From the NCBI RefSeq assembly GCF_003086415.1, contig NZ_QEFP02000014.1, forward strand, positions 3,496 through 35,495: a DNA stretch of 32,000 nt, read 5' to 3'. This DNA is from Candidatus Nanobsidianus stetteri (GTDB lineage Archaea > Nanobdellota > Nanobdellia > Nanobdellales > Nanobdellaceae). Below are positions 23,993 to 24,433 of the stretch, one piece after another; position 1 is the stretch's first letter; each line of letters starts with the position of its first letter. A program made the translations under genes and the position numbers. The notes below the pieces were generated by a model that had not been told where the DNA came from, did no database searches, and saw only the letters and a list, made by a program, of their open reading frames with translations.

Positions 23993-24433
23993 TTATTCAA
24001 AAACTTTCTTTTTATAATAATATAAAATTATCCCAAAATTGATAATCAATATTCCATCAGCTGTAGAACAATATAAACATATTGAATGAATTAAAAATAA
24101 CATTAAATATAATGAAAATATTACAAATAATACACCAATTAATCTATAAAATAAATTATAAATTATCTTTAACTTTTTCTTATATAGTAATAATATTAGA
24201 AATATATCAATTATAAAATATGCAATTGCATATGTTTCTAGAGGTATTCCAAACAATTTTGAATATTGACTTTCTATTACTTTTTCACAATTTATTGGGG
24301 TATTATTAATAGAACAAAATAATGGTGATGAATTATTTATTAAAACTACATATTCTAAATAAATATATATAATTAAGCCTATTATTGAGAATATTATTAA
24401 TAATAATAACTTTTTATCAAATTTTAAGTCCAT
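23993..24433 (-). CDS. Vitamin K epoxide reductase (VKOR) family membrane oxidoreductase
   Basis: From the internal ATG at 24433 the protein is 146 aa with four hydrophobic helices. It has a loop Cys pair (LFCSINNTPINC), then SKLFGIPLETYAIAYF, and a CLYC (CxxC) at the start of the last helix pair. This is the canonical VKOR layout. The upstream 42 codons in the track are Phe/Leu-rich junk that would overlap the divergent gene. Confidence 0.6.
   Translation of the reverse strand: MDLKFDKKLLLLIIFSIIGLIIYIYLEYVVLINNSSPLFCSINNTPINCEKVIESQYSKLFGIPLETYAIAYFIIDIFLILLLYKKKLKIIYNLFYRLIGVLFVIFSLYLMLFLIHSICLYCSTADGILIINFGIILYYYKKKVFE

Follow-up and report, generated by a model that had tools for sequence, protein, structure and literature searches.

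A stand-alone VKOR encoded next to a conserved, rapidly diverging cluster of probably disulfide-bonded proteins in Candidatus Nanobsidianus stetteri

Background

Members of the vitamin K epoxide reductase (VKOR) family share a set of four cysteines plus a serine or threonine, all of them conserved, and the stand-alone VKORs of thermoacidophilic archaea make up, within clade 1, the crenarchaeal subclade (Bevans et al. 2015, PMC4555120). In Actinomyces, surface and pilus proteins are known to depend on VKOR for their folding, and such a dependence has been proposed for episymbionts of the candidate phyla radiation (CPR) that possess pairs of a VKOR and an MdbA-like protein (PMC6744442); VKOR is treated in that study for CPR bacteria only. 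Here we describe a gene for a stand-alone VKOR of 146 amino acids (aa), and the cluster of genes for cysteine-containing proteins beside it, in a stretch of 32,000 nucleotides (nt) from Candidatus Nanobsidianus stetteri, a tiny symbiotic nanoarchaeon of terrestrial hot springs (contig NZ_QEFP02000014.1, positions 3,496 to 35,495). This whole stretch is called the window, and its coordinates are used throughout. Our reading, to which we give a probability of about 0.6, is that this VKOR is the general extracytoplasmic disulfide generator of the cell and that the cluster proteins are probably among its main clients.

Few DPANN episymbionts have been cultivated; the Nanopusillaceae and Nanobdellaceae belong to these few, and their host-contact proteins are unknown. 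The protein components of the attachment organelle of archaeon YN1 and Nanobdella, in particular, are still unknown (Johnson et al., PMC11420986). Among terrestrial Nanoarchaeota, the highest densities of non-synonymous single-nucleotide polymorphisms lie in hypothetical surface proteins, and these organisms are reported to have a cytochrome bd-I quinol oxidase with neither quinone synthesis nor a quinone-reducing enzyme (Jarett et al., PMC6142677). In the literature library searched, we found no paper that joins Nanoarchaeota with VKOR; the published surface studies of Nanobdella and YN1 mention neither cysteine nor disulfide, and the gene numbers of the cluster (MJ1_004x, YN1_38xx) were not found in them. 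The VKOR itself is an ordinary member of its family and has already been named in the public annotation of related organisms, where orthologues in Nanopusillus metagenome-assembled genomes (MAGs) are entered as 'vitamin K epoxide reductase family protein'.

The VKOR gene and its product

23993..24433, minus strand: stand-alone four-helix VKOR of 146 aa, carrying C40/C49 as its loop pair, the invariant S55 and, at the outer end of the fourth transmembrane (TM) helix, TM4, the motif C119-L-Y-C122

Profile, catalytic residues and fold identify the open reading frame (ORF) at 23993-24433 as a true VKOR. Pfam model PF07884 (VKOR) matches it with 76.8 bits (E 2.3e-21, gathering score 27.5) over profile positions 2-130 of 134. 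C40, C49, C119 and C122 are invariant in homologue alignments of 17, 19 and 49 sequences, bacteria included, and S55 and G19 are likewise invariant in the 49 archaeal and bacterial homologues. An AlphaFold2 model built from the 49 sequences has a predicted local distance difference test score (pLDDT) of 86.4 and contains helices at residues 7-31, 65-84, 90-115 and 120-145 plus a short helix in the loop. When this model was searched against the PDB with Foldseek, the best 14 matches were all VKORs (pufferfish VKOR-like, human and Synechococcus; template modelling score, TM-score, 0.63-0.73), and the next match had a probability below 0.35. In the alignment to Synechococcus VKOR (4nv6/3kp9), the loop pair, the serine region and the CXXC motif are in register. 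An earlier note on this DNA, made from the letters and their ORF translations, had recognized the VKOR layout, and profile, cysteines and fold all bear it out. The SKLFGIP motif on which it drew is present, but the invariant serine of the family is S55 (VIES55QYS58KLFGIP), six residues past C49, and not S58 of that motif.

Lysine and arginine residues number 10 on the N-terminus, the TM2-TM3 loop (YKKKLK) and the C-terminus together, two on the cysteine loop, and none on the TM3-TM4 turn. By the charge rule, both redox pairs would face the outside of the cytoplasmic membrane, which is the canonical topology. A longer, 188-aa reading from 24559 is an artefact: 17 of 20 near-full-length close homologues have 146 aa (the others 147, 147 and 171), the extension overlaps the divergent gene at 24484-25041, and the frame is closed in L019 and L020, which are among the closest relatives.

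The VKOR shares 96% identity with its counterpart in Candidatus Nanobsidianus stetteri Nst1 and 88% with the one in Candidatus Nanopusillus acidilobi 7A, which puts its owner in the family Nanopusillaceae. Outside the Nanopusillaceae, its nearest relatives are stand-alone VKORs of 150-185 aa from Caldivirga, Vulcanisaeta, Thermoproteus, Marsarchaeota and Micrarchaeia, which score 107-151 bits against the profile. The three NCBIfam PRK14889 models NF011478, NF011479 and NF011480 give the window protein 79.2, 74.3 and 31.7 bits, below their equivalog cut-offs of 120, 182 and 264; judged by these scores, it is related to the PRK14889 subfamilies and not an equivalog of them. One Micrarchaeia MAG (L028) encodes two VKOR paralogues 1.7 kb apart, of 163 aa (4001-4492 of that locus, plus strand) and 138 aa (6219-6635, minus strand), which may be a pair with differing roles or orientations.

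Cysteines of the neighbouring cluster

The cluster that follows the VKOR gene comprises the genes listed below.

23772..23960, minus strand: 62-aa single-pass membrane protein, no cysteine; its stop and the beginning of the 879-aa gene share 4 nt
21136..23775, minus strand: 879-aa protein, one N-terminal helix, 12 cysteines
19949..21121, plus strand, opposite to the VKOR gene: 385/390-aa protein, no cysteine, one internal hydrophobic segment
18621..19850, plus strand: 409-aa protein, signal-peptide-like N-terminus, C-terminal TM helix, no cysteine
17308..18579, minus strand: 423-aa ORF, or 406 aa when read from the probable start at 18528, N-terminal TM helix, four cysteines including the close pair C237/C245
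17131-17277, 16953-17138 and 16802-16963, minus strand: three overlapping small genes for 48, 61 and 53 aa, a single TM helix each, no cysteine, kept in all relatives
15859..16800, minus strand: 313-aa protein, N-terminal TM helix, six cysteines including C192/C197
14745..15857, minus strand: 370-aa protein, hydrophobic N-terminus, four cysteines
13900..14748, minus strand: 282-aa protein, N-terminal TM helix, four cysteines
13424..13903, minus strand: 159-aa protein, N-terminal TM helix, two cysteines
11899..13392, minus strand: 497-aa protein, N-terminal TM helix, 12 cysteines

Counting by script returned exactly the numbers that the earlier note had reached by hand for the seven large minus-strand proteins (12, 2, 4, 4, 6, 4 and 12, from the 497-aa to the 879-aa protein) and confirmed that the four small proteins and both plus-strand proteins have none. 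The close pairs it had quoted also exist: C192/C197 in ITCNDNGCTF, C632/C637 in IQCSSNPCT, C748/C753 in SWCPNGECY and C237/C245 in GYCSDPTSSECQ. Of the 66 cysteines in the listed ORFs of the window, 44 belong to the cluster, or 44 of 62 when the four of the VKOR itself are left aside. Each large cluster protein has one strongly hydrophobic N-terminal segment and otherwise no TM segment or one weak one; we infer that this segment is a signal anchor or a signal of class-III-like type and that most of the protein lies outside the cell.

A bias towards even cysteine counts is an accepted signature of disulfide bonding (Mallick, Yeates and Dutton, PMC3177088). Seven even counts out of seven correspond to 1 in 128, as had been claimed, when compared with a coin flip. 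Measured against the non-cluster proteins of the window that have at least one cysteine (seven even, four odd), the excess has a Fisher p of about 0.11, and with the upstream genes of relatives added (eight even, seven odd) a p of about 0.04. Taken alone, the parity signal of a single genome is thus weak and suggestive; it becomes solid because of the comparison with relatives, which were inspected over about 20 kb each around the locus.

In four Nanopusillus-type genomes, 41-58% of the alignment columns are invariant in five cluster proteins, and up to 81% in those that are partly covered, while arginyl-tRNA synthetase (ArgRS), Nop5, fibrillarin and DUF655 have 86-88%. All 20 cysteine columns of the 406-, 313-, 370-, 282- and 159-aa proteins are invariant in these genomes, at an overall column invariance of 56-81%. 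When Nanobdella aerobiophila MJ1 (L023) and archaeon YN1 (L024) are included, the invariant columns fall to 16-30%; 17 of the 20 cysteine columns are still strictly invariant across the six genomes, and the other three are shifted by a few columns. The 406-aa protein keeps all four cysteines at 24% column invariance, with two more in YN1, and the 370-aa protein all four at 19%, with two further pairs in YN1. Six cysteines are found in the 313-aa protein of all Nanopusillus-type genomes and Nanobdella, and eight in that of YN1. The 497-aa protein has 12 in the window, L030 and L031 and 14 in Nanobdella and YN1, 10 of the 12 columns being shared. In YN1, additional cysteines number +2, +2 and +4 in individual proteins. 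The counts 4, 2, 12, 6, 4 and 4 recur in three to four other metagenomic copies of the cluster.

The 879-aa protein, for which 43 homologues were found in the database, was divided by anchors into nine segments that were compared in 46 homologues. Its N-terminal half is conserved, with six nearly invariant cysteines (C168, C187-x-x-C190, C334, C406 and C415). Hypervariability marks the C-terminal half, whose lineage-specific C-x3-9-C loops (one pair is 17 residues apart and one 29) are present or absent as units. The window protein, for example, is without a C-x5-7-C loop that four relatives have, and a five-residue insertion of its own creates CSSNPC. Among the cysteine counts per segment, 171 non-zero cells are even (2 or 4) and 21 are odd; 16 of the 21 odd cells are pairs split over two bins, 12 of them in neighbouring bins and four in S4 and S10, which lie far apart. 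In this alignment, the fraction of non-zero cells that are even is 0.82-0.89 for cysteine versus 0.16-0.31 for H, W, M, K and R, residues that are comparably rare. Over the whole protein, the cysteine count is even in 25 of 28 full-length homologues, and the counts of other residues in 12-17 of 28. Such turnover in units of two within short loops fits disulfides and not metal sites. We conclude that the seven cluster proteins are very probably disulfide-bonded outside the cell, in agreement with the earlier note: their cysteines are invariant in fast-evolving sequences and are gained and lost by twos in variable loops. We propose that most of the bonds would be short-range staples (C-x3-9-C), and that the 879-aa protein exchanges loops stapled in this way in its hypervariable C-terminal half.

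An almost invariant F-C-I-L-C (the CxxC of C187 and C190), together with C168 and C334, is shared by all 34 homologues in which this part of the protein is covered; these four residues could form two disulfides, a redox-active CxxC or a four-cysteine metal site. An AlphaFold model of the 879-aa protein from 26 homologues is poor (mean pLDDT 45.8), and its PDB matches in Foldseek were generic Ig-like noise with TM-scores below 0.1, which we discarded. The protein is 62-73% identical between genomes whose ArgRS is 92-97% identical. All VKOR-bearing metagenome contigs examined (L001-L003 and L008-L017) end within about 1.2 kb downstream of the VKOR gene, mostly inside the 879-aa gene. The divergence and the contig ends together point to strain-level hypervariability that breaks assemblies.

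The claim that all counts are even is correct for the window (seven of seven) but does not extend to every relative. In Nanobdella (L023:17033-18516) and YN1 (L024:17312-18689), the orthologues of the 282-aa and 159-aa proteins have five and three cysteines. The extra cysteine occupies one aligned column in each protein, near the C-terminus in the smaller one, and the two genes are adjacent and overlapping. Neither extra cysteine occurs in the Nanopusillus-type genomes, and six close metagenome loci all have four plus two. Odd counts that appear and vanish together in neighbouring subunits are what an intermolecular disulfide would produce. The 5+3 pattern, which represents at most one or two evolutionary events, thus suggests a bond between the two adjacent subunits, as a prediction and not a result.

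Conservation and surroundings of the cluster

The window has a G+C content of about 24% and contains housekeeping genes for ribosomal proteins L21e, S10 and P-protein, Rpo4, fibrillarin/Nop5, alanyl-tRNA synthetase, ArgRS, TYW3, primase and a class V fructose bisphosphatase (FBPase). The entire 30 kb is collinear across the relatives compared. Genes for L21e, a 185-aa bPH-like protein, VKOR, the 62-aa protein and the large protein follow one another in this order in Nst1, N. acidilobi, two Nanopusillus MAGs, YN1 and one further Nanopusillaceae MAG (L025), VKOR identity being 42% in YN1 and 35% in L025. Altogether, the VKOR, 62-aa and large genes are adjacent in seven other genomes or MAGs, down to that 35% identity. 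The 62-aa gene directly follows the VKOR gene in all relatives, except that Nanobdella is without a VKOR gene at this site. The earlier note had called the cluster an island. We reject the label of genomic island, since the composition matches the surroundings and every relative has the cluster at this position; the genes form a conserved cluster that diverges rapidly, and not a variable insertion.

Pfam and NCBIfam searches assigned none of the cluster proteins to a family, returning only TM-driven noise, and detected no metal-binding domain. The name 'mini pilins' previously given to the small proteins goes by appearance and has no profile behind it: the best score against Pilin_N (PF07790) was 14.4 bits (E 0.073; 16802-16963), compared with a cut-off of 25.2, NCBIfam gave nothing, and the 62-aa protein has no match to a pilin profile. 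The N-termini of the small proteins (M-[KR]-[GS] followed by a hydrophobic helix; KKGQ or HKGQ in the YN1 and MJ1 orthologues) resemble class-III signals by eye only. Long Gly/Ala-rich hydrophobic or amphipathic stretches lie past the N-terminal helix in the 406-aa (17308-18579) and 370-aa (14745-15857) proteins, the former having a second, weak hydrophobic segment at residues 67-85; these are possibly membrane-active regions. In the 409-aa protein, N-x-S/T sequons number 22 versus 9.8 expected.

On the other side of the VKOR gene lies one divergently oriented neighbour.

24484-25041, plus strand: 185-aa protein, divergent from VKOR, with a central TM hairpin and a weak bPH_2 match (E 7.6e-4, below the cut-off)

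This gene is found at the same position in every relative, Nanobdella included. Its product has no or one cysteine, and is therefore not the redox partner of the VKOR. Farther upstream in YN1 (L024:1-7171), four genes for AAA_14/DUF4143 ATPases and a split HEPN gene replace the region before DUF655/Rpo4/L21e, while the block of VKOR and cluster is intact.

ARAGORN and Rfam both report tRNA-Arg (1705-1779) and tRNA-Trp (30961-31031) in the window. At 4511-4594 (minus strand), ARAGORN calls an 84-nt tRNA-Leu(TAG) at which the Rfam tRNA model is silent at its gathering score, and a 50-aa ORF at 4510-4662 (plus strand) is an antisense artefact of this tRNA. Two small cysteine-free proteins with N-termini resembling class-III signals (MVKKGQSLSINT... 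and MKRSDAINF...) are encoded at 30446-30748 and 30757-30945 (both plus strand), about 6 kb outside the cluster, and are kept beside tRNA-Trp and ArgRS in all relatives.

Role of the VKOR and rival explanations

The reading that we favour builds on the preceding results: seven large proteins, which would be anchored or exported by an N-terminal helix and carry structural disulfides, are probably among the main clients of the VKOR. The enzyme would take electrons from cysteine thiols of exported proteins, directly or by way of a thioredoxin-fold partner, and would pass them to a membrane quinone that was probably obtained from the host. The cluster proteins, on this account, would be major clients, neither proven nor exclusive.

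A number of results weigh against this reading or limit it. In favour of the VKOR as oxidant of the cluster proteins, its gene is co-oriented with the cluster, with 32 nt between its stop and the 62-aa gene, and the gene order is kept in the relatives named above. Promoters were judged by comparing conserved upstream motifs among the relatives, the five closest genomes being those of the window and L018-L021.

24454..24468, minus strand: TATA/BRE-like motif CAAAAATTTATAAAT (BRE, B recognition element), 21-35 nt upstream of the ATG of the VKOR gene, a distance shared by the window, L018, L019, L020 and L021
23982..23994, minus strand: TATA/BRE-like motif AAAATTTATAATT, 22-34 nt upstream of the 62-aa gene, where it shares nucleotides with the stop codon of the VKOR gene

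A motif AAAATTTATA(A/T)TT lies 22-34 nt before the 62-aa gene in all eight genomes compared (the window, L018-L021 and L023-L025), including Nanobdella, which lacks the VKOR gene there. Both motifs are likely to be archaeal BRE/TATA promoters with very short leaders, and their conservation suggests that the pair of 62-aa and 879-aa genes has a promoter of its own. Separate conserved motifs do not indicate an operon, and because the whole 30 kb is collinear in the relatives, the conserved adjacency carries little information. Nanobdella aerobiophila, moreover, keeps the cysteine-rich cluster (12, 4, 6, 4, 5, 3 and 14; 48 cysteines) with only 68 bp (L023:9753-9822) where its relatives have the VKOR gene. 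No VKOR remnant was detected by tblastn in the 22 kb of its locus, and no VKOR of its 668,961-bp chromosome was among the best 120 of 210 profile matches, its proteins being in the database. The cluster disulfides therefore do not strictly need this enzyme. Nop5 and DUF655 identities place Nanobdella as the outgroup of the others, so that loss of the VKOR in Nanobdella and gain in the other lineage are equally parsimonious. Pfam scans found no match to thioredoxin or DsbA in any ORF of the window and none fused to the VKOR, as the earlier note had stated. In the three loci of related VKORs examined (Caldivirga, Marsarchaeota and Micrarchaeia), no thioredoxin or DsbA gene adjoins the VKOR gene either, so this is a gap shared with them and not a peculiarity of the present locus. 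The outward-facing active site is a rule-based prediction, the export of the cluster proteins is likewise predicted, the orthologues with five and three cysteines break the even pattern, and N-glycosylation sequons are uneven in the cluster (100 observed versus 75 expected overall, with depletion in three proteins), for which reason we do not rely on them. We thus regard the adjacency as a neighbourhood of envelope genes rather than an operon, and a functional link of the VKOR to the cluster as plausible from gene order.

On a rival reading, the VKOR would be an accessory of the cluster alone, co-expressed with it and folding a host-contact apparatus rather than the whole exported proteome. 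In its favour, the arrangement is kept in the seven relatives, including YN1 and L025 with their VKOR identities of 35-42%; YN1 keeps the arrangement despite its rearranged upstream region, and the orientation, the short gap and the cluster's large share of the window's cysteines all agree. The separate motifs, the Nanobdella cluster without VKOR, the general collinearity, which explains the adjacency by itself, and the unrelated contexts of the VKOR genes of Caldivirga, Marsarchaeota and Micrarchaeia nevertheless make such a dedicated role unlikely. The opposite view, that the adjacency is coincidental, seems to us about equally doubtful. The disulfides would then form without VKOR, spontaneously or driven by the host or by oxygen, and the enzyme would serve quinone reduction that feeds cytochrome bd, or redox maintenance. 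This would accommodate the 48 cluster cysteines of Nanobdella, the missing partner oxidoreductase in the window, and the quinol oxidase of terrestrial Nanoarchaeota, for which no source of quinol is known (PMC6142677). It accounts poorly for the strict conservation of four redox cysteines and S55 in a heavily reduced genome, and the predicted active site faces the side on which the cluster proteins fold. To our knowledge, every characterized VKOR takes its electrons from protein thiols.

It is less probable still that the cluster cysteines are ligands of zinc or Fe-S, or free thiols, with the even counts arising from CxxC-type metal sites. The invariant C187-x-x-C190 with C168 and C334 in the 879-aa protein is a possible four-cysteine metal set, and among the cytoplasmic proteins encoded in the window, several even counts are of a zinc-finger-like kind, as in the C2H2 protein (26218-26493). 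Against metal binding, the cysteines turn over by twos in short C-x3-9-C loops and not by threes or fours, the searches detected no metal-binding domain, and the proteins are probably outside the cell, in surroundings that are likely hot and acidic, where zinc sites would be labile.

The general disulfide generator that we favour also bears on the electron acceptor. A VKOR is a quinone-reducing enzyme, and by analogy with characterized members this one would be the kind of enzyme that was passed over in the account of terrestrial Nanoarchaeota by Jarett et al. A route from VKOR through a host-derived quinone to cytochrome bd would mirror that from DsbB through quinone to cytochrome bd in Escherichia coli. 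Nanopusillus acidilobi has been cultured with Acidilobus, an anaerobe; oxygen therefore cannot be the universal sink, which is a further limit on the reading. Besides seven anchored proteins, the hypervariable one of 879 aa among them, the cluster has four small membrane proteins and, in Nanobdella and YN1, a predicted inter-subunit disulfide, and a role in host contact is a reasonable guess. Combining all of this, the VKOR might be the overlooked quinone reductase of terrestrial Nanoarchaeota, sending electrons from protein folding through host quinone to the orphan cytochrome bd, with the cluster encoding parts of the host-contact machinery; the conjunction as a whole we consider improbable. 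If it were true, folding of the symbiont envelope would depend on the membrane quinone of the host.

What the locus offers is a minimal genome that retains a proposed de novo disulfide generator, next to a conserved, fast-diverging cluster of anchored and probably disulfide-stabilized proteins whose largest member appears to swap stapled loops. An encoded enzyme that would reduce quinone bears on the unexplained cytochrome bd oxidase. The cluster proteins are targets for proteomics of the attachment apparatus, and the two odd cysteines mark a predicted subunit contact. The analysis is of value mainly for the link to quinone and cytochrome bd, for the way in which stapled loops turn over by pairs and for the bond predicted between subunits.

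Comparison with known systems

The DsbA-DsbB-quinone-terminal oxidase chain of E. coli follows the same logic, in which a membrane quinone reductase makes disulfides de novo for exported proteins. There, cytochrome bd or bo reoxidizes the quinol. Any relationship between DsbB and VKOR is distant at most, however, and in the present case the quinone would be supplied by the host and no equivalent of DsbA is known. On the side of the substrates, the cluster proteins resemble bacterial type IV pilins, with their D-region disulfide, in having an N-terminal hydrophobic helix and a predicted globular extracellular part that a short-range disulfide would stabilize. They differ from pilins in that none matches a pilin profile and the small ones are free of cysteine, and the window contains no gene for a pilus assembly ATPase or platform protein.

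The VKOR of Synechococcus (PDB 3KP9, 4NV2, 4NV5 and 4NV6) shares the loop cysteine pair, the serine, the TM4 CXXC and the four-helix bundle with the 146-aa protein, but it has in addition a fifth TM helix and a fused periplasmic thioredoxin-like domain. The actinobacterial VKORs of Actinomyces oris and Mycobacterium tuberculosis are, like the 146-aa protein, without a fused thioredoxin domain; a fifth helix has been predicted for actinobacterial VKORs (PMC4555120), whereas the present one is archaeal and has four. The VKOR/MdbA-like pairs proposed in CPR bacteria also belong to ultra-small episymbionts. Both the actinobacterial and the CPR systems have an identified thioredoxin-fold partner, often adjacent (MdbA/DsbA-like), in contrast to the 146-aa VKOR, beside which none is identifiable.

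The closest likeness is to the VKORs of thermoacidophilic archaea, which have the same four cysteines and serine and no fused thioredoxin domain. Compared with these, the Nanopusillaceae proteins are shorter (146 aa) and 23-42% identical. Finally, the VKOR genes of Caldivirga, Marsarchaeota and Micrarchaeia lie in unrelated surroundings, and those of the Nanopusillaceae adjoin a lineage-specific cluster of predicted surface proteins.

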